Shown one piece after another: positions 12,955 to 57,072 of a stretch of 64,000 bases of DNA (positions are counted from its first letter, which is position 1; the number at the start of each line of letters is the position of its first letter). The notes beneath the pieces were generated by a model that searched no databases, was not told the origin of the DNA, and saw nothing but the letters and a program-made list of their open reading frames with translations. The position numbers and the translations under genes were made by a program. Where the stretch lies: positions 46,688-110,687 of the forward strand of contig CANMWZ010000010.1 of assembly GCA_947501605.1 (NCBI GenBank), in the 5' to 3' direction. The stretch is from Planctomycetota bacterium. Lineage in GTDB: Bacteria; Planctomycetota; UBA1135; UBA2386.

Positions 12955-14964
12955 ATGTCGCAAGAAACCTTCCTGCTGCTCGTTGCCCGCGATGGCCAGA
13001 CGGAGACGCATGCATTCCGTCAGGATGCGGTCACTATCGGCCGTTCGCATGAGTGCGACTTGGCCCTCCCGGATCGGCTGATCTCCCGAATGCACTGTCG
13101 CGTCGAGCGGGTGGACGAGGGCTTTGCGCTGGTCGACCTCGGGGCCCAGAACCCTGCCCGGCTGCGCAATCGGCCAGTGGTCCGCGCCGAGTTGCGCCCA
13201 GGGGATTCGTTCACGATGGGCAGCTACGAGATCACGCTCTCGGTGCCAGCCGAGGAGCATGCCTCGATCGAGGACACCCGTCTGCACGGCGACGCGCGCA
13301 GCGCCCACGACCTTTCGACGTTCCTCTCGATCGCCAAGTCACTGAACGAAGAGCACCAACTGACGCGACTGCTCACGCAGATCGTCGATGCGGCGATCGA
13401 ACTGGGCTCGGCCGAGCGGGGCTTCTTGATCCTGGCCAGCGGCGAGGACCACTCGGTCGAAGTTGCGCGGAACTTCGCGCAAGAAGAGGTGCTGTCGCCA
13501 GAACACAAGGTGTCGCGCACGATCGCGCGTCGAGTGCTCGAGTCCGGCGTCCCGGAGTTGACGACCAACGCGCAGCAGGATGATCGCTTCCGCGATCTGC
13601 AGTCGGTATCCGATCTGCGGCTGCGCTCGGTGCTGTGCATGCCGATCCGCATCCAGGGCAAGGTCGGCGGCGTGCTCTACATCGACAACCGGCTACAGCA
13701 ACAGGCCTTTGGGGAGCGCGAGAAGCAGTTGCTGACGTCGCTGTCGGACTATGCGGGCGTTGCGATCCAGAACGCGCGTACGCGCGAGGAAATCGAGCGC
13801 AAGACGCTCGACTTGCAGCAGGCGCTCGACCGGGTCGATCAGCTGAACGCGGCCTTGAAGGGCCAGCTGCAACAGAAGACGGCGGAGCTGAGTGAGATTC
13901 GTGAGGAACTCTCGTCGCAGAGCCACGGGCCGCGAACGAAGTACGACTACAAGCACATAGTCGGCACGGGGCGCGCGATGCGTGTCGTGTTCAACCTGCT
14001 CGACAAGTACATCGAGACCGATGATCCGGTGATGGTCGCTGGCGAATCCGGCACTGGCAAAGAGCTGGTCGCCCGCGCCATCCATTCACAGAGCCATCGG
14101 GCGCAGAAGCCGTTCATCAGCGAGAACTGCGCGGCGCTGCCCGAGTCCTTGCTCGAGAGCGAGTTGTTCGGTTACGTCAAAGGTGCCTTCACTGGGGCTA
14201 CCGGCAACAAGAAGGGCCTGCTCGAACTCGCCGACGGTGGCGTGCTGTTCCTCGACGAGGTCGGAGATATGCCGCTCGACCTGCAGAAGAAGTTGCTGCG
14301 CGTGCTGCAAGAAGGCGAAGTGCGCCCGATTGGCGGCAGCGAGACCAAGAAGGTCGACGTGCGGTTGATCACGGCCACCAACCGGAATCTCGATGAGATG
14401 GTGAAGGAAGGCGACTTCCGCGAGGACTTGTTCTATCGGATCTCGGTCCTGCCGATCACGCTGCCGCCACTGCGCGAGCGCCGCGAGGACATCCCGTTCC
14501 TCATCAAGCGGTTCCTCACCGACGTCATGCACCCGCAGCACGGACGTGTGCGACTGTCCGCCGAAGCGCTGCAGAAGCTGGTCGAGTTTCATTGGCCCGG
14601 CAACGTGCGCGAGCTGCAGAACGAGTTGCGGCGTGCGTCCGTTCTTTGCGATGGTCTGATTCTCGAGTCCCACCTGTCGCCGCAAGTTCGCTCCGGTGGC
14701 GGACCGCCCGTTGCTGACTTTGCCGATCACGGGCTCGTACCTGCCGAACGCGGCACGTCATTGCCCGACATGGTCACCGACCTCGAGGTGCGTGAGATCA
14801 AGAAGGCCTGGGCCAAAGCCCTCGGCAACAAGAGTCGCGCGGCGGACATGCTTGGCCTGTCGCGCTTCACGTTGCAGCGCAAGCTGGAGAAGTACGGCAT
14901 GGATGCGGGCGGCGGCGAGGGCAGCAGTCGAGACGAAGCGGGCGAGGACCGCGCCCCGTCATGA
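12955..14964 (+). CDS. Sigma54-dependent activator: FHA + GAF + AAA+ + Fis-type HTH
   Basis: [69 protein letters not shown]-terminal HTH. Confidence 0.95.
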
Positions 14965-17900
14965 CCTTCGCGCAGCCCTTCCGCGAGTATGAGATCCTCG
15001 ATCGCGTCGGCGCCGGGGCCATGGGGACCGTGTTCAAGGCACGGCACGGCAAGCTCGGGCGCATCGTCGCCCTCAAGGTGCTTCGTCCGTCGCTCGCGCG
15101 CGACAAGCGTTACGTCGATCGACTGCGGCGCGAGGCGCGCATCGTCGCGGCGCTGAACCACCCCAACATCGTCACGGGCTACGACCTTGGTGAGGAAGGC
15201 GGCTACCACTACTTCGTCATGGAGTTTGTCGAAGGCCGTTCGCTCCGGTCGTTGCTGACGGAGTGGGGCATTTTCCCGGAGGACCAGGTTCTCAACGTCG
15301 CCATCCAGGTCGCGGCCGCGCTCGACCATGCCTTCCAGCGTGGTGTGATCCATCGCGACATCAAGCCAGGCAACATCCTCATCGACGAAGCGGGCGCGGT
15401 CAAAGTCACGGACATGGGGCTGGCCAAGGGCCCTGCCGACCTGGCGCTCACGCGCGATGGTTCGACGGTTGGAACGCCCCAGTACATTTCCCCGGAGCAG
15501 GCTCGCAACCCGCAGGATGCGGATGTGCGCAGCGACCTCTACTCGCTCGGCGCAACCCTGTACCACATGGCCACGGGCCAGCCGCCGTTCCAGGGAACGT
15601 CCTTGGCCGAGGTCATCACCCAGGTTTTGAACGACTCGCCGGTTGCACCGCGGGTCATCAACCGCGACCTCAGCGAGGGCATGGCGCTGGTCATTCGCAA
15701 GCTCCTGGCCAAGAGCCCGAAGCTTCGTTACCAGACACCACGTGAGTTGCTCGACGACCTCGATCGCGTCAAGAAGGAGCTGCCGCCGCAGGTCGACGAG
15801 AGTCGACTGTCGACTGAAGACACCGACCGGCAACCAGCGTTGTTGCGCTGGTCTCTCGCGATCGTCGGTGCCGGCGCGTTGATTGCCTTCGGCTACTGGC
15901 TCGGTCTTGGGCGCGGCGACCTACCGACGACTCCTGGAACGCCCGATGCGTTTGTCGCCGCGTTGCGCGTCGAACTCGACGCGATGGACACACCTGGACA
16001 ACAGTGGCTTCGCTACCTCGCACGGACGAAGGATGCGCCTTTTGGCGGCAGCGAGGCGCGGTTGCGGCTGCAGCGAGAGCTCGTTGCCGACCTGCAGACG
16101 GCAGTTGACACGCTGATTGCCGAGCTGCGTTCGTCCGGCTTCGCGCGCATCGCTGCCGATGTGCGCGACCCACAGCGCTGGCCCGAAGCCGCGGTCGTTG
16201 TCCGCGACCATGTCGGAACGTTGCTGCAATCCCGAGTCGGTCTGCTCCAGGACCAGCTACCGAATGGCGTCGTCGCGACCGAACTGGACCGCCTTCTGAA
16301 CGACATCGACCAACTGGTACGCCAGCGCGATCGCGCGCTTGTCGACCGCGCGCGCCTGCACCTCGAAGTCGAGCTTCCCTTGCGCGCGGAGGAGCGCGTG
16401 CGACAGCGGGACTTCAGCGGGGCGGAGCGCCTGTGGCGCGAAGGCTTCGTCGGCTTCTTCGATGGACTGCGGCAGCCGTTGCCGGAGCGGCTGGCGACGC
16501 CGCAGCGGCAAGCTCTCGAAGACAAGTTCGAACGGCTGCGCACTGTGGGCTTGGCGCAGCTCGATGCCGCGGAGCAGCTGACGCTCGCGGCCTTGCGCTT
16601 CGAGGCCGCCGAAGGTGCGAGAACCTTGCGCGCAGGGCTGGCTGCCGCAGCCGATCTCGACGGCGAGTTGCGGCGCGTACTGCTCTTGGCTTCGCGATTT
16701 CGCGAGCAGCTTGCCGCGGCGTATCCGCAGCCGGGTCGATTTCGGGCAGCCACCGATCCTTGGCAAGAGATCGCTGCCGCCGCGACCGCGTTGGAGCGCG
16801 AGGTGGACGAGCGGTTGACGGCGGCGATTCGTCGTCACGAGAACCAGCTTGCGGATCTGGCGTGGCGCGCATTCGTCGACGGCGATGCCGCGGCTGGCCT
16901 CTCGGTGTTGCCTCCACCTTCGAGCCCTGGTGCGGACCAGGTGGACTGGACCGAGGCACATCGAACGGCGTTGCGCGCCGCCGACGCGGTCGCGCGCGCC
17001 TGCGTCGAGGCGCTGCAAAAGGCCGCACCGCCGATCCCGGGCTACCCGCGTAACGGCGGCGTCCCGGTGGAACTGCGCGCCGGAGCGGATGGGCGACTCG
17101 ATGCCCGCGCGGTGGGCGGCACTTGGCGACAGGTGCAGTTGCAGGAGTTCCGGTTTGGCGACTTGTTGCAGCGCGCCATGGCGGCGAGTCCGGAGCGTAT
17201 GCAAGCGATCCCTGCTGACGATTTGCGCATCGGACGGACGGTGCTAGCGATGGCCTGCGATCAGCTCGATGTCCTCGCGGCGGACCTGCCGGCCGGGGAT
17301 CGGACCTTCCTTCGGGACGACGTCTGGCCGCGGCTGCTGCGCATGCGCAATGAGCCATCAGGCCGCGGCGAGGAGCGTGCCGTTGCGTTGCAGCGCCTGC
17401 GTGAGGCGCACACTCGCGCTATCACGCAACGGGACTTGCGCGAGCTCGAAGCCGTGTTGACGCAGTGGCAGATGGGGTTCGCCAGCGACGCCTCGGCCGC
17501 AGAGCGCTCGATTGCGACGGAGGCGGCCCACTTCATCAGCCGCGAGGGCATTCGCCAACTTCGTCAGGCCGAACTCACGCTGCGCGCCCCGGCAGACTCG
17601 ACCGTGACCGTTGTCGATCAAGGCAACTCGCTCCAGTCCGAGGTGCAGATCCCGGCCCCGGCGCTCCGCAACGCTGGGGATGGCTGGCAACTGCGCAGCG
17701 GTCGCCTCGAGTACGCGTGCGCGGTACCGCGGTGGCGGGATGTCCGCGAGCATCGTCTCGATGTCGACCCCGGCTTTGGCCCTGCGGTTGCGGACTGCAG
17801 TGCGGAGCTCGAGTTCGCGATGCCCGCGATCACCGAGGGCCAGCGTCTCTACGTACTGCAGTTCCACGGCATTGCCTGTGTGGTGTTCGCGACTGCGGAC

Positions 17901-18266
17901 GACCGCTGGCTTGCTGGCATCGTCGAAGGCGATGCGCTGAAGGCTCAGGATGTTGCCGCGGCGTTGCAGCGAGCGGTGCACGCCACGGCCGACCGACGGG
18001 GGGCTTCGATCGCCGGTTCCGCTGCCGCTGGCGGCGCGGAGCAACACCAGGGACGGCCGTCGGCCCTGCCGCTCGCGGTGCATCGGTTGCGCTTCTCGCT
18101 CCAGTGCGCGCCATCGCGTCGTACGGCCGCCGCAGTGGTGACCATCGATGGAGCGGAACTTTGCCGGCAGTTCGTGCCGTTCGAGCAAGGTCGCTCGTCG
18201 GGGCTGTTGCTCTACCCAATGCAGGAACTGTCGGTGCGTTCGGTTCGGTTCCGCGCCATCGACTGA
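14961..18266 (+). CDS. Membrane Ser/Thr protein kinase (Hanks type) with a large C-terminal, probably extracytoplasmic, domain
   Basis: GAGAMGTV, VALK, HRDIKPGN, DMG (DFG variant), GTPQYISPEQ, DLYSLG; TM segment around aa 297-317. Confidence 0.93.
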   Translation: MTFAQPFREYEILDRVGAGAMGTVFKARHGKLGRIVALKVLRPSLARDKRYVDRLRREARIVAALNHPNIVTGYDLGEEGGYHYFVMEFVEGRSLRSLLTEWGIFPEDQVLNVAIQVAAALDHAFQRGVIHRDIKPGNILIDEAGAVKVTDMGLAKGPADLALTRDGSTVGTPQYISPEQARNPQDADVRSDLYSLGATLYHMATGQPPFQGTSLAEVITQVLNDSPVAPRVINRDLSEGMALVIRKLLAKSPKLRYQTPRELLDDLDRVKKELPPQVDESRLSTEDTDRQPALLRWSLAIVGAGALIAFGYWLGLGRGDLPTTPGTPDAFVAALRVELDAMDTPGQQWLRYLARTKDAPFGGSEARLRLQRELVADLQTAVDTLIAELRSSGFARIAADVRDPQRWPEAAVVVRDHVGTLLQSRVGLLQDQLPNGVVATELDRLLNDIDQLVRQRDRALVDRARLHLEVELPLRAEERVRQRDFSGAERLWREGFVGFFDGLRQPLPERLATPQRQALEDKFERLRTVGLAQLDAAEQLTLAALRFEAAEGARTLRAGLAAAADLDGELRRVLLLASRFREQLAAAYPQPGRFRAATDPWQEIAAAATALEREVDERLTAAIRRHENQLADLAWRAFVDGDAAAGLSVLPPPSSPGADQVDWTEAHRTALRAADAVARACVEALQKAAPPIPGYPRNGGVPVELRAGADGRLDARAVGGTWRQVQLQEFRFGDLLQRAMAASPERMQAIPADDLRIGRTVLAMACDQLDVLAADLPAGDRTFLRDDVWPRLLRMRNEPSGRGEERAVALQRLREAHTRAITQRDLRELEAVLTQWQMGFASDASAAERSIATEAAHFISREGIRQLRQAELTLRAPADSTVTVVDQGNSLQSEVQIPAPALRNAGDGWQLRSGRLEYACAVPRWRDVREHRLDVDPGFGPAVADCSAELEFAMPAITEGQRLYVLQFHGIACVVFATADDRWLAGIVEGDALKAQDVAAALQRAVHATADRRGASIAGSAAAGGAEQHQGRPSALPLAVHRLRFSLQCAPSRRTAAAVVTIDGAELCRQFVPFEQGRSSGLLLYPMQELSVRSVRFRAID

Positions 18267-23551: not shown

Positions 23552-24331
23552 ATGATGCACGGACCTGCCATGTTCCGATCCCGCAAGGCCAAAACCACCG
23601 CCGAGTCCCAGGCGCAGAACGATGACCTAGTGGTGATCGTCGATCGCGCCGTGAACCCGTACCTCGTGATGTTCCACGAGCCCGCGAGCTACCGTGCCGA
23701 GCAGATGCGGGCACTCCGCAATCGCCTCGCGACGTTGAACGCCGACGCCGAGCCCAAGACATTGGTCGTGACCTCCGCCAGCCGCAGCGAGGGAAAGACC
23801 GTGACGGCGCTCAATCTGGCGATGGCACTGTCTGAGCTCGAACGGCAACAGGTCGTTGTCGTCGATGCGGATCTTCGGCGACCCTCGATCGAGCGCTACC
23901 TCAACCTCAATCCGGGGCCGGGTCTCAGCGACGTGCTGCAAGGGGATGTTCCGCTGGAGAAGGCCCTGCGACCAGTTGGCTTCCGACGCTTGATGGTGCT
24001 CGGCGCCGGCACCCGCGTCAACAACCCGGCTGACGTCCTGAACGGGTCGCGGATCGACGAGCTCTTTGCGCGACTGAAGGAGCGCTTTCAGTACATCGTC
24101 ATCGACACACCTCCAGTGCTGCCGTCGACCGATGCCGGCGTGTTGGCGGCCCGCGCCGACGGTACGTTGTTCGTGTTGCGACTCGAGCACACGCTGAAGG
24201 GCAGTGCACGCGAGGCGCTGCGTAGCCTGCAAGAACTCGGCGCCAATGTGCTCGGCACCTTTGTCAGCGAGTTGCGTGGTCGCGATCCAGAGAGTGATCC
24301 AGATCTGCGCTACGACAGCGTGGAGGACTGA
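23552..24331 (+). CDS. CpsD/CapB-family (BY-kinase-like) P-loop ATPase
   Basis: EQMRALRN, Walker A TSASRSEGKT, A' VDADLRRP, Walker B IVIDTPPVL; no C-terminal Tyr cluster. Confidence 0.85.
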   Translation: MMHGPAMFRSRKAKTTAESQAQNDDLVVIVDRAVNPYLVMFHEPASYRAEQMRALRNRLATLNADAEPKTLVVTSASRSEGKTVTALNLAMALSELERQQVVVVDADLRRPSIERYLNLNPGPGLSDVLQGDVPLEKALRPVGFRRLMVLGAGTRVNNPADVLNGSRIDELFARLKERFQYIVIDTPPVLPSTDAGVLAARADGTLFVLRLEHTLKGSAREALRSLQELGANVLGTFVSELRGRDPESDPDLRYDSVED

Positions 24332-24337
24332 CCAGAA

Positions 24338-25132
24338 GTGGGCGGGTTCCGGGAGTCTCTGAAGCAGGCTGTGCGGCAAATCGCGTTTCGCACCGACCTG
24401 AACTCGCTGAAGAAGCAGGGTATCGAGCAGGTCAGCGTGCTCGGAATGGACCGCATCGTCGGACTCATCGAAGAGGCCGTGCACCGCAGCCTGAAGAGTC
24501 GGTTGGTCGGACTCGAACGCGAGGCCGTCGCGGATGCGACCAAGGCCGAGTTCTTGCGGTTGCTCCGCACGAACCAAGACTTGCAGCGGGAGAAGTCGGA
24601 GGTCGAGCGGCTCAAGGAGCGCGCCGAAGAGGAGATCGACCAGTTGCGTCGCCAGCTCGGTGCCGACAAGCAAGCATTGGAGCAGCGACTACAGAGCGAC
24701 TCGCTGTCGTCACAGGCTCGCTACGAGGGCGAGAACACTCGGCTGGTCGAACGGGTTCGCGAGCTGCTGTCGAGTGCAGGTCCGGGTGCAGGCGCCGCGC
24801 TGCAAGAGCAAGTGCTCGACCTGGTGTTCCAGACGGTCGACAAGGAACGTCGGTCCGCCGAGCACGCCCGCTCTGCGCTCCGCGATCGCGAGGTCGACAA
24901 CCTGCAGCGCCGAATCGAGAAGCTGACCAGCAGCCTCGAGACTACCGAGCATCGCCTGCGTCAGGTCGCGGCGATGAAGAACATCGACGACGGCATCTCA
25001 TCGATTTACCGAGAAGTGCAGGGCCTCAACGACGGCTCCGAGCAGTTCGGGAAGAAGAAGGACCTGATGTCGGCGATCTTCGCGGCCAACTTGCGCCTGC
25101 AGAAGAAGACCGGCTCGACGAACGGAAACTGA
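24338..25132 (+). CDS. Coiled-coil protein of unknown function
   Basis: Long E/K/R/L heptad-rich helices; sits tightly between operon neighbours; GTG start. Confidence 0.75.
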   Translation: MGGFRESLKQAVRQIAFRTDLNSLKKQGIEQVSVLGMDRIVGLIEEAVHRSLKSRLVGLEREAVADATKAEFLRLLRTNQDLQREKSEVERLKERAEEEIDQLRRQLGADKQALEQRLQSDSLSSQARYEGENTRLVERVRELLSSAGPGAGAALQEQVLDLVFQTVDKERRSAEHARSALRDREVDNLQRRIEKLTSSLETTEHRLRQVAAMKNIDDGISSIYREVQGLNDGSEQFGKKKDLMSAIFAANLRLQKKTGSTNGN

Positions 25133-25148
25133 CGCATAACCAATCTCT

Positions 25149-26234
25149 ATGAGCCAAAACGACAAGCAAGGTACGGGTGCGCCCGACACTCCCAGCAAGA
25201 ACCACGGCGTCCTCTACATCGGTATGGACCTCGGGACTTCGCGCACATCGGTCAGCGCGAGCAACGGCGTTCGTGAGACGGTCTACTCGGTCGTCGGCTA
25301 CCCGAAGGACGTCGTGAGCAAGAAGCTGCTCAAGAAGGACGTCCTGTTCGGCAAGGAAGCGATCGAACGTCGACTGTCGCTGAAGGTCTACAAGCCGCTC
25401 GAGAAGGGCGTGCTGAAGTACAGCGGCGCTGGCGGCATGACGGATCAGGAGAAGGACAACCTGAAGGCCGCTCAGGACCTGATCGGAGAAGCGATCCGCC
25501 TAGCCCGCCCGCGCAAGGACGAGTTGGTCTACTGCGTCATTGGTGCCCCGGCCGAGGCCTCGATGAAAAACAAGGAGGCGATCATCGAAGCCGCGCGCGC
25601 CCATGTCGACTCGGTGATGCTCTGCAGTGAACCCTTCTCCGTCGCCTACGGCCTCGACTGGCTGGAAGACGTGTTGGTGATCGACATCGGGGCCGGCACG
25701 ACCGACCTGTGCCGCATGCATGGCACGATGCCAGAGGACGCCGATCAGGTGATGTACGAGATTGCTGGTGACTCGGTCGATGCCGAGCTGTCGCGACTCA
25801 TCCGCGAGACGTGCCCGGGAGCCCAGTTCAGTGACGTCATGGTCAAGGACATCAAAGAGCGTTACTCGTTCTTGGGCGAGACCGGGGAGCGCGTGGTCGT
25901 CGAATTGCCAGTCAACGGCAAGCCGACGCCATTTGACCTGACGGATCAGATCCGCAAGGCATGTTCGGTACTGATCGATCCGATCGTCGAAGGCATCAGC
26001 AAGCTCGTTGCGACTTTCGATCCCGAGTTCCAGAGCCGGTTGAAGAACCGCGTCCTGCTAGCAGGCGGTGGTTCGATGATCAAGGGCTTGGACACCGCTA
26101 TCGAGAAGGCGATGCGCGAGCGCTTGGGCGGCGGCAAGGTCATCCGCATCGAGGAACCGATCTACGGTGGCTCCAATGGCGCGCTCAAGATCGCGCACGA
26201 CATGCCTGAGGAGTTCTGGGAGAAGCTGAAGTAG
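25149..26234 (+). CDS. mamK: MamK-like bacterial actin
   Basis: IGMDLGTS, SVVGYPKD, SEPFSVAYGLD, IDIGAGTTD, LAGGGS and C-terminal ALKIAHDMPEEFW match MamK-type motifs better than MreB motifs. Confidence 0.85.
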   Translation: MSQNDKQGTGAPDTPSKNHGVLYIGMDLGTSRTSVSASNGVRETVYSVVGYPKDVVSKKLLKKDVLFGKEAIERRLSLKVYKPLEKGVLKYSGAGGMTDQEKDNLKAAQDLIGEAIRLARPRKDELVYCVIGAPAEASMKNKEAIIEAARAHVDSVMLCSEPFSVAYGLDWLEDVLVIDIGAGTTDLCRMHGTMPEDADQVMYEIAGDSVDAELSRLIRETCPGAQFSDVMVKDIKERYSFLGETGERVVVELPVNGKPTPFDLTDQIRKACSVLIDPIVEGISKLVATFDPEFQSRLKNRVLLAGGGSMIKGLDTAIEKAMRERLGGGKVIRIEEPIYGGSNGALKIAHDMPEEFWEKLK

Positions 26235-27106: not shown

Positions 27107-29668
27107 TCACTTGCCCTCGATATCGCGGATGTCCGTGATCCACGCGCGGACCATGACCATCAGACTGCGGTTCTCGTCGGCGACGCCTTCCTGCTTGAAG
27201 AAGAAGGACAGCAGCGGCAGCTGCGAGAGCAGCGGGATCTCCGCGCGGCGTTCGCGAGTGAGCACCTGACGCAGGCCACCGAGCAGGACCGTGCCGCCGT
27301 CCGGTACTCGCACCGTGGTCGCAAAGCTGGTGACGCGCAAGTTCGGCAACTGCAGCGTCACTGGCAGCGTCGAGCCGGCGAGCGACGTGGTGAACGTCGG
27401 GATCGGGCGGCTCAGTTCGGCGATGGTCGGGTTGAGGTTAAGGATGATGTACTTACGGTCCTGCTGGATCACCGGTCGCACGTCCAGAACGATGCCGTCC
27501 TGGATCACGTCGACCTTCGGGTCCGCGATGAACGAGGCCTGCGCGACCTCGACGTCGAAGTCACGGACATAGGCCGTCTGGTTGATCACCGCGACGTGGC
27601 CACGCTCCTTGTCGAGGACTGACAAGTATTGGCTATTGACGATCTCGACATCCTCCTGCTTCTCGACCGCGCGCAGGATCATCTGCAACTCCGTATCGCC
27701 CAGATAGGCCCAGCTTGCAGTGAATCCGCCATTGGGCGTCAGCGCTTGGCCAAGGCCTGAGGTGAACAGGTTCTCGGTCCGGCCGCGAACGTCGCCGTCG
27801 TTGCCGTCGTTGAAGAACGCACCTGAGGTCGGGTTGGCTGCCGGGTCGCCGGTGCCGCCGTTGTCGGTGCCACGCGACGCGTTGTCGTCGAGGCCATTGG
27901 TGACGTCATCAAGGGTCGCATTGGTCCCCTTGCTGCCGGCTCCGCCGAGGCCCCGGAAATCGACGCCGATCTCCTGCAGGAAGTTGCGCGTGATCGTCAG
28001 GAACTTGCTGTCAATCGTGACCACCGGCGTCGCCGAGCGGCGCATATCGGCGAGCACGCCCGCAACGAGCTTCTGGATCGTCGGGCTAGCCTTGACGATC
28101 AAGTAGCCGGTGTCTTCGGGCGTGATTCCCACACCCTCGCTGCCCCAGTAGGCGGGATCGGTAGCGTCTTGAACGTTGGTGACGAGGTCGGCGATCTCGA
28201 TGTAGGAGACCTTGTCGTCCCCTTCACCACCAGCGCGCGGCGAGTCATCCGTATCGCCGCTACCCGGGATGTCACGGATGCGAGGCGCGAGGAACTCGGT
28301 GCGCTTGAAGACGAGGTCCTTGACGTCGTAGACCTCGCTCTGAATCTGGCCAGACGCGTCGGACTTGTTGCCGATGACAACAACTCCATTCCGGACCGTC
28401 CAAGCAAGGTTCGTCGACTTCTGAACCATCAGGTTCAAGAAGTTCTCGAGCGTGACCGAGTTCACCAGCTCGATCTCCATCTTCAGGCTCTCGCCGTTGA
28501 TCACCTCGCGGCCGGCCGGAGTAATGATGATCGAGACGTTGGTGACCAACTGGAGGTTCTTGACGACCTCGGTGAACTCGCCCGTCTCGGCCGTGTAGGT
28601 CAGCTTGCCGACTGGCGCGATGCGGACTTGCTCCCAGAGAGCGGCGTCCTGCGGATCGATGCTCTGCTGTGAGCCGACGGTCCCGGCGCGGCGCTGAGCC
28701 CGCTCCCAGGTGTCGTTATCCATCGACAGCACCTTGGTGTAGGGGATCTTGAGCTCCTCGCGGCTCTCGAGCAAGGAGCGGATTTCCTTCGCCTTCTGCG
28801 AATAGTAATCCTCGTTCATCTGGTCGCGCGCGGCCTTGGTGGTGACGTGCACCATCTCTTGGGCGACGGCGCTGGTCGGATCCGCCTCGAGGGCCTTGAG
28901 TGCATACTCCTGCGCGTTGCGGAACTGGCGGCTCTCGAAGGCCACCTGAGCCTGCTGCAGGAAGAGATCGAGCCGAGCGCGGCGGCGCGCTTCCGTCTGG
29001 CGGCGCTCCTCAGCGAGGCGCTGGGCCAATTGGTCGTTGTATTGGCTCTGCGTGGCCCGCTTCTGCTCGGTCAGCTTTTGCTCCGCGTCACTGAGCAGGC
29101 CATCGACTTGCTGCGGCAGAGCTTGCCAGTCCACCTGGTCGCGAGTGCGAACGATGACCTGCGCGTGACTCAGTTCGTCGACGGCACCAGCGAAGTTCTG
29201 CTCCGCCAGCATTTCGCGAGCACGCTGCAGCTTCTCGGTCACGAGCGCGCGCGAGCGGTCTTCGGCGATGCGCTGCTGTTCTAGTTGCTCGGTGTGGAAA
29301 TCGATGGCGCCCCCGATCGGCACGCCGCGTTCGGCTTGCACCGCCGCGATCATGTTGCGGACGGCCTCGTTCTCAGGCTGGAGGTCCTTCGCCTTCAGCA
29401 ACTCATGCAGCGCTGCATCGAGTTTGCCATCGAGGCGGAGACGTTCGCTGACTTCCAGGTACTTGGCGACGAGAGCGGCGCGGCGCTCTTGATCGAGCGT
29501 GCGCGCACCTCCTTGCGGGTCCTGCGCAGCGGCGTTGGCTTCGCCCTGGTTCGGATTCGTCGGGTCCATGCCCGGTTCGGTGGTGGTATCGCTGGATGTC
29601 GAGCACGAAACACCAGCAAGGGCGGCGGTCAGAGATGCGGCGAGAAGGCGCGGATGTTCGAGGGCCAT
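27107..29668 (-). CDS. Secretin-family (GspD/PilQ-like) lipoprotein with a TPR N-terminus, paralog A
   Basis: Lipobox LAGVSC; C-terminal secretin motifs DGIVLDVRPVI, TTVRVPDGGTVLLGGL, IPLLSQLPLLSFFF. Confidence 0.85.
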   Translation of the reverse strand: MALEHPRLLAASLTAALAGVSCSTSSDTTTEPGMDPTNPNQGEANAAAQDPQGGARTLDQERRAALVAKYLEVSERLRLDGKLDAALHELLKAKDLQPENEAVRNMIAAVQAERGVPIGGAIDFHTEQLEQQRIAEDRSRALVTEKLQRAREMLAEQNFAGAVDELSHAQVIVRTRDQVDWQALPQQVDGLLSDAEQKLTEQKRATQSQYNDQLAQRLAEERRQTEARRRARLDLFLQQAQVAFESRQFRNAQEYALKALEADPTSAVAQEMVHVTTKAARDQMNEDYYSQKAKEIRSLLESREELKIPYTKVLSMDNDTWERAQRRAGTVGSQQSIDPQDAALWEQVRIAPVGKLTYTAETGEFTEVVKNLQLVTNVSIIITPAGREVINGESLKMEIELVNSVTLENFLNLMVQKSTNLAWTVRNGVVVIGNKSDASGQIQSEVYDVKDLVFKRTEFLAPRIRDIPGSGDTDDSPRAGGEGDDKVSYIEIADLVTNVQDATDPAYWGSEGVGITPEDTGYLIVKASPTIQKLVAGVLADMRRSATPVVTIDSKFLTITRNFLQEIGVDFRGLGGAGSKGTNATLDDVTNGLDDNASRGTDNGGTGDPAANPTSGAFFNDGNDGDVRGRTENLFTSGLGQALTPNGGFTASWAYLGDTELQMILRAVEKQEDVEIVNSQYLSVLDKERGHVAVINQTAYVRDFDVEVAQASFIADPKVDVIQDGIVLDVRPVIQQDRKYIILNLNPTIAELSRPIPTFTTSLAGSTLPVTLQLPNLRVTSFATTVRVPDGGTVLLGGLRQVLTRERRAEIPLLSQLPLLSFFFKQEGVADENRSLMVMVRAWITDIRDIEGK

Positions 29669-30124
29669 CGGTTCACGCTCTGGAACTTGTGGGGTGCGAG
29701 CACCCACAAGGGTTTGGGACGATTCTCCGAACCGACGATTCGCGAGCGAGCGTGCGCGAGGGGTTGCTACGCGGCGGTCGTGATGCGGCGGGGGAGGGGC
29801 TTAGGGACAACAACGTCGCGACTGCTGCAGCAGAACGCCACGTCGAAGTCGGCGAAAGCTAGCCACGCCTGCGGGCTCGTGCCAGCGGATTCTGCGTCCA
29901 TCCTGCTGGGATCTTCTTCGATTTGCGCGGGGCCGAGCACTGCGGGAGGCGATCGACGCCCGCCGGTGCGGCGGGCGCGGCGCCCACCGTTCTGTGCTTA
30001 GGCCTTGGTGCTCTCGCGAAGATCGAGATCGAGCACTCGTGAAACAGCGCGACCCTGCTGCGGGGTTGCCGCAGCAGGGTCGCAGGTGGACTCGCCCAGC
30101 GAGTCCTTGGGCACGCTCGCCGGA

Positions 30125-30691
30125 CTACTTCTTTCCTGGAGCCTGGCCGAGGCCGCCGCCGAAGTTGATCTCGCCGAATCCAGCGGCCTTCACCAAGTCC
30201 GCGGTCTTCGCCGCATCATCATAGTACGTGCCCGGGTGTGGTTCGATGACCACCGGCATCGGCTTCTTCTGGCCGGGCTTCTCTTTGTCATCCTGCCAAG
30301 TGTCGCGGTTGTTGTAGATCCGCTTCAATTGGTTCAGCAGGTCGTCGCTGTTCGTCACCAACGTTGGGCCCACCATCCATTTGATGGTGTGACCCTGAAG
30401 GGCGAAGCGGTAGGGACGCTGGGTCTGGCTGTTGACCAAACCAGGGCCGCCGCCATTGGGAAACCGCTGGGTGCCCCTGGAGTCCTCGTAGACGCCGAGC
30501 GATAGCTGTTCCTGTGGCTCCACCTTGGTTGCTTGGCTGCCCTTGTCCTTGGGCAGGTAGGCTGGCAGCTTGGCCTCGAGCACTTTGAATTCGATGCAGA
30601 TGAAGAAGATGATCATCAGGAAGACGCAGTCGATCATGGGCGTCATGTCCGGCTTGACTTCTTCCTGGGCTGCTGCGAGTAGATCGCTCAT
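30125..30691 (-). CDS. exbD: ExbD/TolR family protein
   Basis: DMTPMIDCVFLMIIFF TM segment with the conserved Asp. Confidence 0.85.
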   Translation of the reverse strand: MSDLLAAAQEEVKPDMTPMIDCVFLMIIFFICIEFKVLEAKLPAYLPKDKGSQATKVEPQEQLSLGVYEDSRGTQRFPNGGGPGLVNSQTQRPYRFALQGHTIKWMVGPTLVTNSDDLLNQLKRIYNNRDTWQDDKEKPGQKKPMPVVIEPHPGTYYDDAAKTADLVKAAGFGEINFGGGLGQAPGKK

Positions 30692-30712
30692 CGTCGGTTC
30701 CTTGCTGGTTGT

Positions 30713-31234
30713 CTAGTTCTTGCCCTTGAGCAGCGCCTCTTCCTTGTCCTTTTCGGACATGGCGAGCTCGACCTTCCAGAAGGCAGCTTCGGGCTGGCTG
30801 CACTGCTTCATCACTTCGCCGACGAAGTGCCACTCGGTCCACTTGTCAGCGCGCAGGAGGATCGGATCGTCGACCAGTTCTACGTCGCGTCCGCCGAGAT
30901 TCTCAGTCTTCGTCTTCACGTTGCCGGTCTGCTTGATCAGCTTCAGCATTCGTAGGATGCCGGAGTAATCGCTGCCGTGGACCGCAGGGTCGTACTGCAT
31001 CTTCCCCTTGTAGTAGACCGCGCCCGTTTGCAGCAGGTTGATGACGGGTCGGTTCTCGGGCGGCGAGTCATCGGCTTGCTGATACTGTGCCTTGGGGAGA
31101 ATCAGGTCTTCGAGGTTGGTCTGACTCAGGTCGATGATCAGCACGAAGAAAATCATCAGCAGGAACACGCAGTCGATCATCGGAGTCATGTCCATCTCCT
31201 GCGTCTGCTGCGCTTCTTTCTTGAGGTCGGTCAT
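30713..31234 (-). CDS. exbD: ExbD/TolR family protein (second)
   Basis: DMTPMIDCVFLLMIFF; ILLRADK..WHFVGEVMKQC periplasmic motif. Confidence 0.9.
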   Translation of the reverse strand: MTDLKKEAQQTQEMDMTPMIDCVFLLMIFFVLIIDLSQTNLEDLILPKAQYQQADDSPPENRPVINLLQTGAVYYKGKMQYDPAVHGSDYSGILRMLKLIKQTGNVKTKTENLGGRDVELVDDPILLRADKWTEWHFVGEVMKQCSQPEAAFWKVELAMSEKDKEEALLKGKN

Positions 31235-31296
31235 TGCTCAGCTCCTTGCCCGCGAGACGGGACTAGGTCGAACGTGCACGGGGACAAGTGGTTCGA

Positions 31297-32025
31297 TCAC
31301 TGCCCCTTGCGGAAGCGCTCGAACATGTCCTCGGCGATGGCATTGACCTCGGTGCAGATGCGGACGACGCGGTTTCGGAGGACGAAGAAGCACACGCCGA
31401 CTGGCATCGCGACCGTAAGGCCGAAGATCGTCGTGATGAGTGCCATCTTGATGCCCTTGGCCAAGATCGCAGGGCTCACGGATCCACCGGCAGAGGCGAT
31501 CGTTCCGAAGGTCACGAACATGCCCGTCACGGTGCCGAACAATCCCATCATCGGTGCCGTCGCGGACATGAGCGACAGCCAGCCGACCTTTTGGAACAGC
31601 TTGGTGGATTCTTCCGCCTCCATCTCGCGGACGGTGGCCTGAATCGTCTCGAACGGGTGGCCAAGCTTGCTGAGGCCCGCGCCGACACACCGCGTCAGGT
31701 AGAACTTTTCGTTCTCACAGAGCTCGGTCGCTTCCTGAAAGTTCTCTTCGTCGAACAGCGCGCCCAGCTCGTCAATCAGGTCGGGCGGCGCAAGCTTCTC
31801 GCGCTTCAGGGAGACGAAGTTCTCGATGATTAGCGCCAGGGAGATGACCGACATGGCGACGATGATGTAGCCGATGAGGCCAGCGTTTTCGTACGCGAAC
31901 ATGTCCGCGAGCGCGCCGGTTTGCTCGGCGGCGGCGGGCTTCGCATCCTGCGCGGAAGCGAGGCTGGTCACGAACAACGGCGTGGCAAGGGCGAGGAATC
32001 GAGCGATGCTAGATGGGAGGTTCAT
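31297..32025 (-). CDS. exbB: MotA/TolQ/ExbB proton channel protein
   Basis: APMMGLFGTVTGM and ALITTIFGLTVAMP TM motifs; signal-like N-terminus; start MNLPSS. Confidence 0.92.
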   Translation of the reverse strand: MNLPSSIARFLALATPLFVTSLASAQDAKPAAAEQTGALADMFAYENAGLIGYIIVAMSVISLALIIENFVSLKREKLAPPDLIDELGALFDEENFQEATELCENEKFYLTRCVGAGLSKLGHPFETIQATVREMEAEESTKLFQKVGWLSLMSATAPMMGLFGTVTGMFVTFGTIASAGGSVSPAILAKGIKMALITTIFGLTVAMPVGVCFFVLRNRVVRICTEVNAIAEDMFERFRKGQ

Positions 32026-32179
32026 GGAGCAGCGACTCCGTGTGCAGGAGTAGGGCAGGTAGCAGGGAGAGGGGGTTAGATCGAGCCGCAGAGTTTGCGC
32101 GGTCGCGCGACCGCGGAAAAGACCCTGAGACAGATGGAAACGAAAAAGGGGTGGGCACGCGGCATGCGGGCCGTCGATG

Positions 32180-33316
32180 TCACTTGGCGAGCTCGGTCTT
32201 CGCCGGACCAACCCAACGGCTGGTGGAGTAGCTACGAATCACGAGGTTGAAGTAGGCGGTTGCGCGATTCTTCCAGTCCTGGCTGGCGCGTTCGCCCAGC
32301 GCTGTAACCACGCGACCGAGGTAGTAGTTGGCTTTCGCAGCCGTGTCGCCGGCGCCGGTGTCGAGCACGCAGGCTTCGGCGAGCGCGATTTCGGCCGTGC
32401 GCAGCCCAGCGGCGTCGTTGGCGCCCACTGCAACGAGGAACGTGGCTTCACCGAGGCCGGCCTTGCCGGCGGCGGCGAGCGATGCGTCCGTGTTCTGGGC
32501 TAGGGTCCGGAAGTAATCCGAGGCGCGGACATAGTCCTTCTCGAAGACAAGCGATTCGCCTTCGCCGACCTTCGAGTTGACCTTGATCGCGACCATTTCC
32601 GCGCTTTGGCCACCAGCGGCGGCGAGAGCGGTGTCCGCAGTGCCGCCGGCGCTCTGGAAGGAACTGCGGGCGTCGGCTGCTCGGCCTTGTTCGAGCAGAC
32701 TCAGGGCCAATTCGTACTTCGCGCGCGCATTCCAGATCGCTCCCCAGCCATCGCTACCAGCGCGATTGTCGAGGTCCTTCAGTGTCGCTTCGGCGTCCGC
32801 ATGCACTTGGCCGAGTCGCAGTGCACGGCCGAGTAGATACATCCCTTCGGGGACGCGCCAGTGGTCGGGGAACTCGCTGAGCCACGCCCGCATGGCACCC
32901 GACGCGTTCGCCGCGGCGGCGGGATCGCCGGCGGCTGCCATGACCGCGGCCCGGCCTTGCAGCAGGCGGGCTTCGGCCTTGACCACGGGACGGTCGCTGG
33001 CAGTTGCCGCCTCGCCGAATTGCTGTCTGGCCAATTCGTACTCGTTGCGAGCCATGGCGGCGAGGCCGCTCGTGAAGCTCTCAGGGACTCCGCCCCACTG
33101 GATGTCGACAATCTGGTGCGGGGGGATCTCGACTTCCTCTTTGCTGCGCGTCACCTTGACCGAGGTCAGCGTGAAGACTGTCACCGTCACGCCGCGAAGG
33201 CTCGAGCCGTCGACCTTGACAATGGTGTCTGACGATTCCTGCGCCGGCAACCAGGCTGTGCACAGCGACAGACAGAGAACGAACAAGGAGCGCATGGCGG
33301 GTGTGCGGGCGTTCAC
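32180..33316 (-). CDS. Exported TPR-like protein
   Basis: Signal peptide (SLFVLCLSLCTAWLPAQ), small beta domain, then helical repeats ending YSTSRWVGPAK; start GTG 33316 (GTGA coupling) or ATG 33295. Confidence 0.75.
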   Translation of the reverse strand: MNARTPAMRSLFVLCLSLCTAWLPAQESSDTIVKVDGSSLRGVTVTVFTLTSVKVTRSKEEVEIPPHQIVDIQWGGVPESFTSGLAAMARNEYELARQQFGEAATASDRPVVKAEARLLQGRAAVMAAAGDPAAAANASGAMRAWLSEFPDHWRVPEGMYLLGRALRLGQVHADAEATLKDLDNRAGSDGWGAIWNARAKYELALSLLEQGRAADARSSFQSAGGTADTALAAAGGQSAEMVAIKVNSKVGEGESLVFEKDYVRASDYFRTLAQNTDASLAAAGKAGLGEATFLVAVGANDAAGLRTAEIALAEACVLDTGAGDTAAKANYYLGRVVTALGERASQDWKNRATAYFNLVIRSYSTSRWVGPAKTELAK

Positions 33317-36195
33317 GGGCGGTTCAGGTCGAAGTAGGTGAAGAGGTTCATGCCGTCCTGGCCGAGCGCCTTGAGGCCGGCGAACTTGTCGAGTGCTCCC
33401 GTCGTGCGGTAGATCGAAGCCGCGTAGCCCTTGTAGGTGCTGTCCTGCTCGCCAGCCTGTTTGGCGTACCAGTAGCATTCCCATTGGAAGCGATACCAGT
33501 CGATGCTGTACTTCTGGACTGCGGGGCGCTGAGCCCAGGTCCGGTACTCGGAGTAGTACTTGTCGTAGGCTTCCTTGTAGCGGCCGAGGCCAGGCTCCTT
33601 CACCGGCTTGCCACGGTTATTGAGGTAGAACCAGCCGCCAAGGGCCTTGCAGACCAGGCGCTTCAGCTCGTACTGGTTGGGGTTGGCCTTCTCGGCTGCG
33701 AGCAACATGTCGAGTGCCTGCTGAAACTGGCGTTGCTCGAGCAGCGCTTCACCGATTTTCGGCCGAATCGTGAGGTCGATGACCTCCTTGGTCTTCGCCT
33801 CTGCTTCAGTTCCGTACAGTTGCAGCGCCTTCTGCGCGACCTCGTCGACTTTCTTCCAGTCGCCGAGTTTCTCGAAGGCGTTCATCGTGTTGACCAGGAT
33901 GCCGAGCTGCGGCTTGCCCGACGAACGGATGTAGTCAACGCCCAGGTTGCACAGGCGCGTGCGCATCTGCGTGATGTCGTTGCGCAGCTTCTCAATGCCC
34001 GCCTTGTCCTTGTCGGCACTGACGGCAGCGTCGAGTTCTTTGTCCAGATTGGCCGTGTGCGTCAGGTAGGCACCGAAGATGACGCTTGCTAGCTTGCTTG
34101 CGCGCTGCTCATCGAGGTCCTTGATCTGCAAGTACGAGGCTTCGGCCTTGTCGAGTTCGCCCAGGTCTGCGTGCATCCGGCCAAGAGCGTCGAGCGCCTG
34201 TGCGATCGTCGCTTCTTTCGACTTGCCGTGGTTGGCGACAAAGGCCTGCATCAGCGCGATTGCCGCCGGATACTTTGCAGGGTCGCGTTGCAGCTTCAGG
34301 GTCGCATCGCCATAGGCCTGCGCGTAGGCGATTGCTGCCTCGGTGTAATCCGTGCGCCGGATGGCACTCTCGCGGACTTGTGCCTTGTCGGCTCTCTTGG
34401 GGTCGAGAACGGCTTCCTTGGAAGCGAGCCAAGAGCGGTAGTCGGCGATGGACTGCGTGGCCTCCGCGATCTTGCCGCCAAAGAACTGCATCCGGATCAG
34501 GTTGGCGCGCGCGAGCTCGTACTGCAGGAACTCCTTCGGTACCTGAGCAAAGGCGTCGACCGCTTCCGTCCACTTGCTCTCGGCCATGCGGTCATTGCCG
34601 TTCTTCCAGTGGACCTTGCCGGCGCCGGCCGTCGAGTAGGCCAACACGGTCGGCTCGGCCATGGCAAACAGCGGCTGCAGAGCAGGGTCGTTCTTGCTGA
34701 TCGACTTGAGCTGCGTGACGGTGCGATCCAAGCGGTCTGCCATGTCGCTGGCGAGCGGCGATTCGGTGCCGTCCTCTCGCTTGCCGAAGCGCTTCAGTCC
34801 TTGCTCGAAGGCAATCAGCGACTCGAGGAATCGATCCGTCGCAGCGAAGATCTTCCCGAGGAGGTCATAGGCTTCGAGGCCGATTGCTCTTTGCTCTTCT
34901 GGTGACATCGTCGCGAGCGCGCGGCGGAGACCCTTGATGCCCTCCTCGTAGTTCTTGTTCTGATATTCGCCCTTGGCGATTTCGAACAGGAGCGAGCCCG
35001 AAACCAAGTTGCGCTGGCGATCGAGAATCTGACGCAGCACCGCCTTGGCCTTGATGCCGACGTAATCGCTCGGATGCTTGTCGTTGATCTTCTGCGCCAT
35101 GGTCAGCGCCTGTTGCACCTTGGCAGCATCTCCCGACTCGGCAAGGAACCGGCATTCGGCCAGGAAGGTAAGGTGACCAAAGCGCGGATCGCAGATCTCG
35201 AGCGGATCGAGCCCCTTCTCACCGTTCTTGGCGAGGTTGTCGCGGAACGAAAGGAACATCTCCGTCGCCGCCGCCGTGTCGCCCTGCTCGAACAGGAGTT
35301 CGCCGAGATGCGCGTAGACCTCCTGCATCATGTCAAAGAGGAAGGCCAGCGTGTCGCCGCTGAGCTCGTTGTCCTCGGCATTGAGTGTGACGCCGATCTG
35401 TTGGATGGTTGCGCTATAGCTGGCGATTGCATCGGCAGTGTTGCCCGCAACCTCACGGCACTGAGCGATCTCGAAGAGCCCGCGCAGGCCGAGTGCGGTT
35501 TCCTCCCCGTACTCAAGCACCATCTCTTCGAGTTCATTGATTGCTCGTCCCGTCTGAACTTCCCGGTCCTGCTTGATGGCGCGACCATGTTCGCGCAGCA
35601 GCACGCCTTTGCGCATCCAGGCAAGACCGTACTCGAGCTTCGTCTGCGGATCCTTGGCTGCACCCTCTTGCAGCGCCTGCATGACCTTCACGCACGATTC
35701 GCCGCCGAGTGCGAACACGTCCTTCGCTTCCTGTTCCAGTTCGGCCACGCGAGTTGGCGATTCCGTGCGCGCAACATCGAGTTCTTCGTTGAGGAACTGT
35801 CCAAATTCCTGAGCTGCTTCTGCGAGCGTCGCGCGAGCGTCGCGCTGGACCGTTGCGTCGCTGCTGCGCTCGAGCAGTTCTTTGCTCTGCAGCAGAGCCT
35901 TCTTGTAGTCGCTGCGCTGCTCGATGCGGTTCTGCTTGATGCGCGCGCCGAACAGCGAGACCTCCACTCGCAACTGCAGGACGCGGTCCTGGTCGCTAGC
36001 CGTCTTGAATTCACTCTCGAGTCGCGCGAGCTCGGTCTCTGCGACCGACACGAGTCCGAGATCGCGCGCGAGGCCGCGCACAAAGGTCATCTCCCGGTCG
36101 AGCTTGGCCGGTCCCTGAGCGACAGCAATCGTCGTCTGGAACGACATCGCCAAGAGGCCAAGGGCGACAGGAGACAGGAACGCTCGGGCGCGCAT
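33313..36195 (-). CDS. Large exported TPR/alpha-solenoid protein (~960 aa)
   Basis: Signal peptide ending AVAQ; predicted all-helical, TPR-like repeats throughout. Confidence 0.75.
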   Translation of the reverse strand: MRARAFLSPVALGLLAMSFQTTIAVAQGPAKLDREMTFVRGLARDLGLVSVAETELARLESEFKTASDQDRVLQLRVEVSLFGARIKQNRIEQRSDYKKALLQSKELLERSSDATVQRDARATLAEAAQEFGQFLNEELDVARTESPTRVAELEQEAKDVFALGGESCVKVMQALQEGAAKDPQTKLEYGLAWMRKGVLLREHGRAIKQDREVQTGRAINELEEMVLEYGEETALGLRGLFEIAQCREVAGNTADAIASYSATIQQIGVTLNAEDNELSGDTLAFLFDMMQEVYAHLGELLFEQGDTAAATEMFLSFRDNLAKNGEKGLDPLEICDPRFGHLTFLAECRFLAESGDAAKVQQALTMAQKINDKHPSDYVGIKAKAVLRQILDRQRNLVSGSLLFEIAKGEYQNKNYEEGIKGLRRALATMSPEEQRAIGLEAYDLLGKIFAATDRFLESLIAFEQGLKRFGKREDGTESPLASDMADRLDRTVTQLKSISKNDPALQPLFAMAEPTVLAYSTAGAGKVHWKNGNDRMAESKWTEAVDAFAQVPKEFLQYELARANLIRMQFFGGKIAEATQSIADYRSWLASKEAVLDPKRADKAQVRESAIRRTDYTEAAIAYAQAYGDATLKLQRDPAKYPAAIALMQAFVANHGKSKEATIAQALDALGRMHADLGELDKAEASYLQIKDLDEQRASKLASVIFGAYLTHTANLDKELDAAVSADKDKAGIEKLRNDITQMRTRLCNLGVDYIRSSGKPQLGILVNTMNAFEKLGDWKKVDEVAQKALQLYGTEAEAKTKEVIDLTIRPKIGEALLEQRQFQQALDMLLAAEKANPNQYELKRLVCKALGGWFYLNNRGKPVKEPGLGRYKEAYDKYYSEYRTWAQRPAVQKYSIDWYRFQWECYWYAKQAGEQDSTYKGYAASIYRTTGALDKFAGLKALGQDGMNLFTYFDLNRP

Positions 36196-36427
36196 AGGGC
36201 GCCGGATGGTGCTGCCGATCACGAGGCTGACTCCAGAATGCAGAAGAGGCACGATTCGGATTGCGCCCGAGGGTGCATGCGGGCGCCACCGACTCGGGCA
36301 AAGACCAGCGCGCGGAGGGGTCTCACCACGCGTTGGACAAGGAACGCTGAACATAGCGATCGGTTCAGTGGAGCCAATCGCCAAGGGCGCGAGCGCTGAG
36401 ACAGCAGCACGCGCCCCGCTAGGGGTG

Positions 36428-39103: not shown

Positions 39104-39448
39104 GGTATGCCTGCCCAATGAGGGCGTAGCAGAGAGGGAGTAGCGGTCCGAGGGGAGGGACAAGCGGATCACCTTGCGTCGGCTGTTGCCGCAGGGGCTC
39201 GCGGCGAAGGCCGAATGCGAGGTGAGTCTCAACCAAGACGACGGGAAAGAGCACAACTCGGCAGGGCTCGTCGATGCGTCTGGGCAACCGTGACGTCAGC
39301 GAGTCGCACGGTGTTCAGGCCTCGGAACGGGGTCTGCGAAGCAGTCTCCGTGCGCAAGAACCACAAGGTTCCCACGCAGGGACCGGCGGACGGTAGCGGC
39401 GTGCATGGGCACGGTCAAGAACGGCCAACACGCGAAACCAACAGGATT

Positions 39449-53312: not shown

Positions 53313-53897
53313 CTACTGGGCTTCGCTGGGTTTGCCGGAAACGACGACTTTGGCGTGCCGCAGAACGCGATCCGTCAGCAAGTAGCCTGGCATCAAGACC
53401 CGCAACACGCGACCGGGGTCGACGCCGGCCTGGTTCTCCACAATGACGGCTTCGTGGCGCGCCGGATCGAATACCTGGTCCTTGGCGTCAATCTCCTGAA
53501 GGCCGTGCCGTTCTAGCGCGGAACGCAGCAGCACCTGGACCATGCGAACTCCCTGCACGAGGGCTGCGGGGTCCTTCGAGGCCGTTTGTCCATCCCATGC
53601 CTGGAGTGCAAGTTGGAAGTTGTCGAGCACGGGCAGTAGTTCCTGCGTCATGCCCTCGAGGATGCGGCGGCGCATGTCGTCGGCTTCCTTCTGCTGACGT
53701 CGGCGCATGTTCGCTGCGTCGGCCAGGGTGCGGCGCAACTGCTCCTCGAGTTGATCGCGCTCGCCTCGCAGCGTCTGCAGCTCTGCTGCGGAACCCTCGG
53801 TGGCCTCGCCTTTGGGCTCGGTGCCGTTCGGAGTCTGCGAGCCGGTCTTGGGCTCGCTGCGCGAATCATCCGCGTTGTGTCCTGAGTGTTCGTTCAC
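53313..53897 (-). CDS. grpE: Nucleotide exchange factor GrpE
   Basis: [32 protein letters not shown]. Confidence 0.95.
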
Positions 53898-55045: not shown

Positions 55046-55127
55046 GGTCTAGCGGTGCCGCATGGGACCGCGCGCCAAGCCTACAGTGGCGCGCAGTCCT
55101 TCGCCGGCGGTGTCGCGGTCGTCGAGG

Positions 55128-56740
<1,613 letters not shown>

Positions 56741-56744
<4 letters not shown>

Positions 56745-57040
56745 TCCTCCCAGCGAGCGAGGATCTCGCTCTCACGCAGGATCTTGTAGTCATCGCCGCC
56801 GACCTTGACGTCGCTGCCGGCGTACTTGCCGAAGAGGACCACGTCGCCCTTCTTGACATCGGGCTTGGCGCGCTTGCCGTCCTTTTGCAGCTTGCCGTCG
56901 CCGACTGCTGTCACCTTGCCGCGCTGGGGCTTTTCCTTCGCCGTGTCGGGCAGCAGGATGCCGCCAGAACTCACTTCTTCGGCGTCGAGTACTTTCAGCA
57001 CGACGCGATCATCCAGGGGTCGCAGGGTTGCCATCGTCAT
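56741..57040 (-). CDS. groS: Co-chaperonin GroES
   Basis: [36 protein letters not shown] before 57040. Confidence 0.97.
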
Positions 57041-57072
57041 GTCTCCTTGTCGTTGATTCGGGGTTGCGGCGC

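Follow-up and report, generated by a model that had tools for sequence, protein, structure and literature searches.

A saltatorellin-type planctomycete actin and a modular adaptor predicted to bind its groove

What is a MamK-like actin doing in a bacterium with no recognizable magnetosome genes, and what do the two genes directly in front of it contribute? This question is raised by a three-gene locus in a window of 64,000 nucleotides (the whole stretch of DNA analyzed here) from a Planctomycetota genome of 4.65 Mb (66% GC, 91% complete). The locus encodes a P-loop ATPase, a coiled-coil protein and the actin, in three same-strand open reading frames (ORFs) separated by 6 nt and 16 nt, the spacing given by the original prediction. 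That prediction, made from the sequence alone, had read the genes as a positioning module for a non-magnetosome cargo or internal membranes. We favor a different explanation, to which we give an even chance: a saltatorellin-type, non-magnetosome actin is accompanied by a dedicated groove-binding adaptor that likely controls the ends or anchoring of its filaments, with the ATPase, of tyrosine-kinase type, as a likely but optional input.

A MamK-family actin in a clade apart from magnetosome MamK

The actin scored 403.2 bits on the NCBIfam MamK model NF040964 (cut-off 400), as against 62.3 bits on the MreB model (cut-off 293) and 202 bits on the BeeR model NF053558 (cut-off 530). It is therefore MamK-like rather than MreB-like, as its motifs had been taken to indicate, and both other identities were rejected. 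SVVGYPKD, SEPFSVAYGLD and GALKIAHDMPEEFW are present as described; DIGAGTTD is present as well, although three residues, not the two claimed, separate the following C from GT. The nearest solved structures were those of MamK (5jyg, 5ljv and 5ljw; E about 4e-70; 36-38% identity), ahead of BeeR (8r2n; 29% identity) and MreB. An AlphaFold2 model (predicted local distance difference test score, pLDDT, 89) repeated this order and shares the fold of MamK 5ljv (template modelling score 0.85/0.94). Residues 1-13 were modelled with low pLDDT; BeeR, a non-magnetosome MamK relative from Verrucomicrobiota, also has a disordered N-terminal extension (PMC11929497). The phosphate-loop motifs and E161 are invariant among homologues. 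The genome's true MreB (435 bits) is encoded on another contig (C1), near penicillin-binding protein and RodA genes, and the two ORFs in the mreC/mreD position beside it had no Pfam match. No mreC or mreD lies next to the MamK-family actin, as had been noted: the triplet is flanked by hutU upstream and by a HAD hydrolase gene on the opposite strand.

Named homologues came nearly all from Planctomycetota assemblies. Orthologues (E<1e-90) were found in 35 of 41 near genomes, and MamK-family actins in 111 of 301 sampled Planctomycetota genomes. In a tree of 62 rows (26 of 88 were dropped, three as long branches; BeeR and Mad28 were absent), a 100/100 branch separates 41 Planctomycetota rows, including this actin, from the MamK of magnetosome clusters and from MreB.

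This protein is very likely saltatorellin, an actin already named but barely studied: in a full-text search, only two papers used the name. Saltatorellin is the MamK-like actin of Saltatorellus ferox, Engelhardtia mirabilis and Rohdeia mirabilis; the S. ferox protein formed filaments in E. coli and M. gryphiswaldense, and in 2019 it was proposed to drive shape-shifting in planctomycetes that lack FtsZ (10.1101/817700). The actin studied here is likewise a MamK-like second actin of a non-magnetic, deep-branching planctomycete that also keeps MreB. Our comparison used the ends encoded by the published S. ferox primers, not the full S. ferox protein: the reverse primer encodes the C-terminus YWEQLK, a hexapeptide shared by 22 of 120 close homologues, and the primer-encoded N-terminus matched none of the collected proteins or named loci. 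Its distribution across the phylum makes the family far wider than the saltatorellin-bearing clade, and the accessible text on saltatorellin names no partner genes (10.1101/817700).

Searches of the source genome with the Pfam MCR and NCBIfam MamI models found nothing but had no positive control, and real magnetosome clusters were therefore brought in as controls. Forty-one metagenome loci with the MamK pattern were fetched, several of which are magnetosome clusters by NCBIfam (all of the MamJ/MamY-bearing type, with no Mad-bearing cluster among them). With queries from these clusters, MamA, B, P, I, L, R, S, T, Y, H and J had no match at E<=1e-5 in the source genome; MamE, O, M, N and Q gave only partial or 22-43% paralogue matches, and FeoB only generic paralogues. 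The same Mam queries gave 50-78% matches in most other magnetosome clusters. On the window's contig, the actin alone was among the best matches listed, which agrees with the predicted lack of mam genes and feoB nearby. MamB exceeded its cut-off in none of the 301 Planctomycetota genomes, including all 111 with the actin. Unlike magnetosome MamK, then, this actin has none of the core mam genes (A, B, E, I, M, O, P, Q) found alongside it, no MamJ or other Mam partner, a clade of its own and an adaptor of its own; the genome-wide search, with queries from MamJ/MamY-bearing clusters and in a genome 91% complete, turned up no magnetosome cluster to account for it. A contig of another genome that carries two actins (G068, C271) had been suspected of being such a cluster; by Pfam its neighbours are not Mam proteins, and it was set aside.

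Several further MamK relatives were observed. A second clade without mam genes in the fetched DNA (L142, L145, L146, L157, L161-L164, L167, L168 and L172) scored about 404-492 bits on the MamK model where scanned. Its partner is a small protein that starts with a hydrophobic segment, contains a coiled coil and has a conserved C-terminal motif unlike that of the adaptor described below, and two of its loci lie near hemL. In G068, a 764-residue frame (L112:5066-7357) carries an N-terminal hydrophobic segment and a degenerate MamK-like domain behind a long acidic region, adjoining an intact actin gene. A divergent family member of 248 bits (L123; G217:C4:500532-501560) forms a long branch outside both main clades.

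A middle gene with a constant tail and interchangeable front ends

The middle protein belongs to no Pfam or NCBIfam family. Its AlphaFold2 model (pLDDT 85.8) is built of helices at residues 60-146, 153-218 and 237-261. A fold search gave no match at E<=0.001, and fold, Atlas and PDB profile searches returned generic coiled coils only; across 87 homologues, NCBIfam found nothing beyond scattered SMC and GGDEF matches. A relative of the gene is nonetheless present at 107 of 110 loci around close actin homologues (some loci share a genome). What is constant among these relatives is the last ~85 residues. A profile of this C-terminal domain collected 926 clusters at 50% identity and, among the 301 sampled genomes, matched in 77, all of them among the 111 with the actin, and in none of the other 190 (kin genomes are not independent in these counts). 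Most of the matches (79/93) lie within 1.5 kb upstream of an actin gene on the same strand, as do 37 of the 41 weak ones (E>1e-10, outside the profile's building set). Five more actin neighbours with a weak or no profile match still end, by pattern, in a hydrophobic-x-x-N-x-x-L helix. In the 41 metagenome MamK-family loci, the profile had no significant match (best E 0.025). The fixed core of the locus is thus adaptor plus actin, and the kinase-type gene is optional; the triplet holds as a conserved grouping but not as a fixed set of three.

How might the two core proteins meet? A complex model of actin residues 17-361 with the adaptor's tail domain scored 0.76, against 0.00 for the best of three controls, and so is in line with the adaptor role first suggested for the coiled-coil protein; among solved complexes, 116 of 157 attained the mark applied, compared with 2 of 215 mismatched pairs, a calibration that is rough for the self-made alignments used here. 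Between runs, 62% or more of the contacts recurred, and partner pLDDT was 60 or higher. The predicted adaptor interface is the last helix, through K240, M244, I247, F248, N251 and L254, of which K240, I247, F248, N251 and L254 are invariant or near-invariant in the family. On the actin it covers residues 139-146, 157-159, 167-173, 192-194 and 348-360, with contacts that include M157-C159, Y167, D170, T193, M194, I348, D351, M352 and F356. By actin numbering, we take these to line the hydrophobic groove between subdomains IA and IIA, so that the model predicts binding of the adaptor's last helix in this groove. A PDB profile search found no solved chain resembling the tail.

Co-encoded partners that place a C-terminal helix in this groove are described for crenactin (arcadin-2) and ParM (ParR) in one study, in which the crenactin groove also makes the intra-strand contact (PMC5173319). 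We found no sequence likeness between the adaptor and arcadin-2 or ParR, and the adaptor differs from both in its interchangeable signalling-type front ends. Soluble coiled-coil proteins also accompany MamK-type actins in the Mad20/23/25/26 network, to which we liken the adaptor by description; that network belongs to a magnetosome context in deep-branching magnetotactic bacteria (PMC12748827).

The front ends vary across the phylum. In the window, the constant tail is preceded by a coiled-coil head and neighboured by the tyrosine-kinase-type gene. At 45 of 107 loci the front end is of GGDEF type (Pfam-confirmed in 10 of 13 proteins scanned). None of these 45 heads has GG[DE]E[FY], and 34 retain RxxD, placed five residues ahead of the degenerate active-site position, which we take to be the pattern of cyclic di-GMP (c-di-GMP) receptors. 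None of the 45 adjoins the kinase gene. At one locus (L104), the adaptor tail is joined in a single protein to a kinase domain that has no Walker A lysine. Loci without the kinase, most of them GGDEF-headed, group in the actin tree on a branch (97/96) that arises from within the kinase-linked ones, so the kinase with a coiled coil looks ancestral there. Three long adaptors (L116, L118 and L122) carry an extra N-terminal domain that is PilZ-like by eye and had no Pfam match.

A relative of the head lies beside another actin. The head profile had one other match in the source genome (contig C16, E 8e-7; best reversed-sequence control 0.36), in a gene whose immediate downstream neighbour encodes a volactin-family actin (PF25216, 275 bits). 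Compared directly, the two partners are only weakly alike (28% over 87 residues, E 0.003), and the volactin partner has a different conserved tail. Of 41 relatives, 33 carry volactin, and at 28 of 30 loci a frame next to it contains the head. The four f9/f10 genomes searched yielded no volactin, and many adaptors of these families carry other heads.

The kinase-type ATPase and the surroundings of the locus

The ATPase passed the TIGR01007 model (111.4 bits, cut-off 108.05); TIGR03018 was best-scoring but under its cut-off. MinD (44 of 202 bits) and ParA (23 of 180) were far from reached, so that of the label "MinD/BY-kinase-like" the bacterial tyrosine (BY) kinase half is retained and the MinD half falls away. 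The closest solved structures were BceF, VpsO, CapAB and Wzc. In 24 aligned homologues, E50/R53/R56, G81-K82, D105/D107 and D185 are invariant or nearly so; Walker A, A', B and ExxRxxR are intact, as in split BY-kinases such as CapB and the XrtA-associated autokinase of TIGR03018. Unlike those, it has a single C-terminal tyrosine (Tyr254, at least 90% in the same 24) in place of a cluster, which occurs only in some distant copies such as L128, and its gene adjoins an actin rather than a co-polymerase. The operon encodes no transmembrane activator partner, and a kinase-less co-polymerase lies on contig C8. Homologues begin with MFR, and the real start is therefore probably the ATG within the ORF (Table 1).

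A kinase profile (E<=1e-60) gave 59 matches, of which 28, from nine families, lie within 2.5 kb of an actin (7 same-strand, 21 divergent); adjacency was scored against 100 of the 146 actin places, the remainder being in genomes without a kinase match. That the linkage survives inversion and the fusion in L104 argues for a functional tie. In a quick kinase tree, whose root is unreliable, kinases beside actins and kinases beside co-polymerases were not firmly split. The second kinase copies that families f68 and f10 carry had been expected beside co-polymerases, an expectation we dropped: four f68 copies adjoin an acyl-CoA dehydrogenase gene (with aroA also adjoining in the two checked), and the f10 neighbours had no NCBIfam match.

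Table 1. Positions of the module's genes and domains, and of the genome's third actin
Feature	Position	Strand	Length	Remark
BY-kinase-type P-loop ATPase, soluble (P0001)	23552-24331	+	259 aa	probable start 23570
Helical adaptor (P0002): head, long coiled coil, conserved C-terminal domain	24338-25132	+	264 aa	
Adaptor head, residues 1-80	24338-24577	+		profile match to C16 gene; replaced by GGDEF elsewhere
Adaptor C-terminal domain, residues 176-262	24863-25123	+		11 invariant columns in 67 rows
Adaptor terminal helix, predicted actin-binding element	about 25046-25120	+		complex model
MamK-family actin, Planctomycetota saltatorellin-type clade (P0003)	25149-26234	+	361 aa	
Volactin-family actin, third actin of the genome	L227:5763-7513 = C16 about 35762-37512	minus		PF25216

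The genes that flank the triplet are retained in close kin only (13/60 loci). By inspection none of the three proteins has a membrane segment, and the compared loci showed neither a conserved cargo gene nor a membrane anchor; the suggested non-magnetosome cargo or internal membranes thus found no counterpart. Near-identical contig pieces of the region occur in RNA libraries from three studies, but these pieces cover the flanks too and none of those listed spans all three genes, so they do not establish expression or co-transcription. A promoter and terminator scan of the locus stayed at chance level. Relatives were absent from the viral contigs searched, and plasmids gave two matches only, at 23-25% identity. 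A triplet of 77% identity lies on a 6.8 kb contig titled Luminiphilus (L035), probably a mis-binned contig.

Elsewhere in the window, a cluster at positions 27107-39256 (minus strand) encodes two proteins with secretin domains along with ExbB, two ExbD and TPR proteins, possibly a motor-driven envelope or gliding-type machine; at 13 of 60 loci, one of its secretins is still found close to the actin. An FHA-GAF-sigma54 activator followed by a 1101-aa Ser/Thr kinase occupies 12955-18266, and two groEL copies adjoin dnaJ at 53894-58701.

Weighing the explanations

In a filament the groove would be occupied by the next subunit, which would leave only monomers and one end of the filament open to the helix. 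An oligomeric coiled coil presenting several such helices would most likely act as ParR does on ParM, holding and stabilizing the filament end, and the front end would set the timing. The inputs may be the head shared with the volactin partner together with the kinase (here), a c-di-GMP-binding degenerate GGDEF domain (in the derived lineage) or a fused pseudokinase (at one locus). As has been proposed for saltatorellin, the likely output would be to shape the cell or remodel its envelope, not to carry an organelle.

Several points weigh against this end-holding explanation. No phenotype ties the organism to shape change. The predicted binding comes from a model made with self-made alignments; since groove-binding helices are common in solved actin complexes, its pass may partly reflect likeness, and a 1:1 model cannot separate end-anchoring from sequestering. 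No tail domain was detected upstream at 68 of 146 actin places, nor anywhere in 34 of 111 actin genomes, and RxxD is lacking or not visible in 11 of the 45 GGDEF heads. At the threshold used above, the kinase lies beside the actin in only 28 of the 111 genomes, with none adjacent in 83; its lone tail tyrosine is missing from two family-f50 copies. Tyr224 of the adaptor is conserved, yet Phe replaces it at 3 of the 49 loci with a linked kinase, a point against its being the phosphosite.

The adaptor could instead be a sequesterer that occupies the same groove and keeps the actin unpolymerized until a signal releases it. Its predicted site would be identical, arcadin-2 is a co-encoded protein whose conserved C-terminal helix depolymerizes crenactin from this groove (PMC5173319), and saltatorellin polymerized in hosts without the partner (10.1101/817700). 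The 150-residue coiled coil and conserved head suggest a scaffold over a small sequesterer, and we regard this as an unlikely, if serious, contender. Unlikely, too, is that the kinase serves the genome's kinase-less polysaccharide co-polymerase, so that the module ties the filament to sites of exopolysaccharide export or the kinase is a mere neighbour. An exosortase-type exopolysaccharide locus on contig C8 (L178, G000:C8:52098-61746) carries an exosortase, an O-glycosylation ligase, a TIGR03007-like co-polymerase and an export protein; the ATPase is the sole strong kinase-profile match in the source genome, where the Wzc on contig C6 lacks, by inspection, the Walker A lysine; and a co-polymerase (chain-length determinant) locus occurs in 39 of 41 relatives, with a kinase beside it in 0 of 30 fetched loci (1.5 kb flanks). 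The lack of a firm split in the kinase tree would also fit. Against this stand G127, which has one kinase by the co-polymerase and another by the actin, the adjacency to actin kept in two orientations and nine families, and the L104 fusion of a kinase domain with the adaptor tail.

A ParA/MinD-like positioning system for a soluble cargo or an internal membrane would suit the layout of filament, adaptor and P-loop ATPase as well as the MamK ancestry. The BY-kinase assignment makes a positioning ATPase of that style unlikely, however, and with the ATPase absent from most loci and no conserved cargo gene or membrane anchor seen, we consider the idea improbable. It is very improbable that the actin derives from or serves a magnetosome whose cluster was lost from the assembly. 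Its pass on the MamK model, the incompleteness of the genome and the reported magnetotactic Planctomycetota (PMC12713370) speak for such a loss; the lack of any Mam orthologue among matches to the MamJ/MamY-bearing clusters, the absence of MamB over its cut-off across the phylum sample and the separate clade speak against it, and a closed relative (G014, one contig) that has the triplet and no MamB over the cut-off largely refutes it.

The kind of actin found here is already known; the new part is its modular partner. We found neither the adaptor, in its GGDEF form or otherwise, nor the kinase link described in the full-text literature (few subscription journals covered; preprint supplements excluded), and the adaptor is apparently undescribed. 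Bacterial actin-groove binders are rare, ParR being the one bacterial case cited in a 2016 study (PMC5173319). With a specific partner, a predicted site and named residues, control of the saltatorellin-type filament becomes testable in vitro. More tentatively, the module may be part of a phylum-wide, signal-controlled two-actin network in FtsZ-less planctomycetes, in which groove-binding tails with exchangeable inputs and a shared head join MamK-type and volactin-type filaments, a eukaryote-like regulation behind shape-shifting and amoeboid movement; this is a possibility that we think doubtful. Direct control of a bacterial actin by c-di-GMP or a tyrosine kinase would, if true, surprise specialists. 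In these planctomycetes, the locus likely represents a signal-controlled bacterial cytoskeleton.

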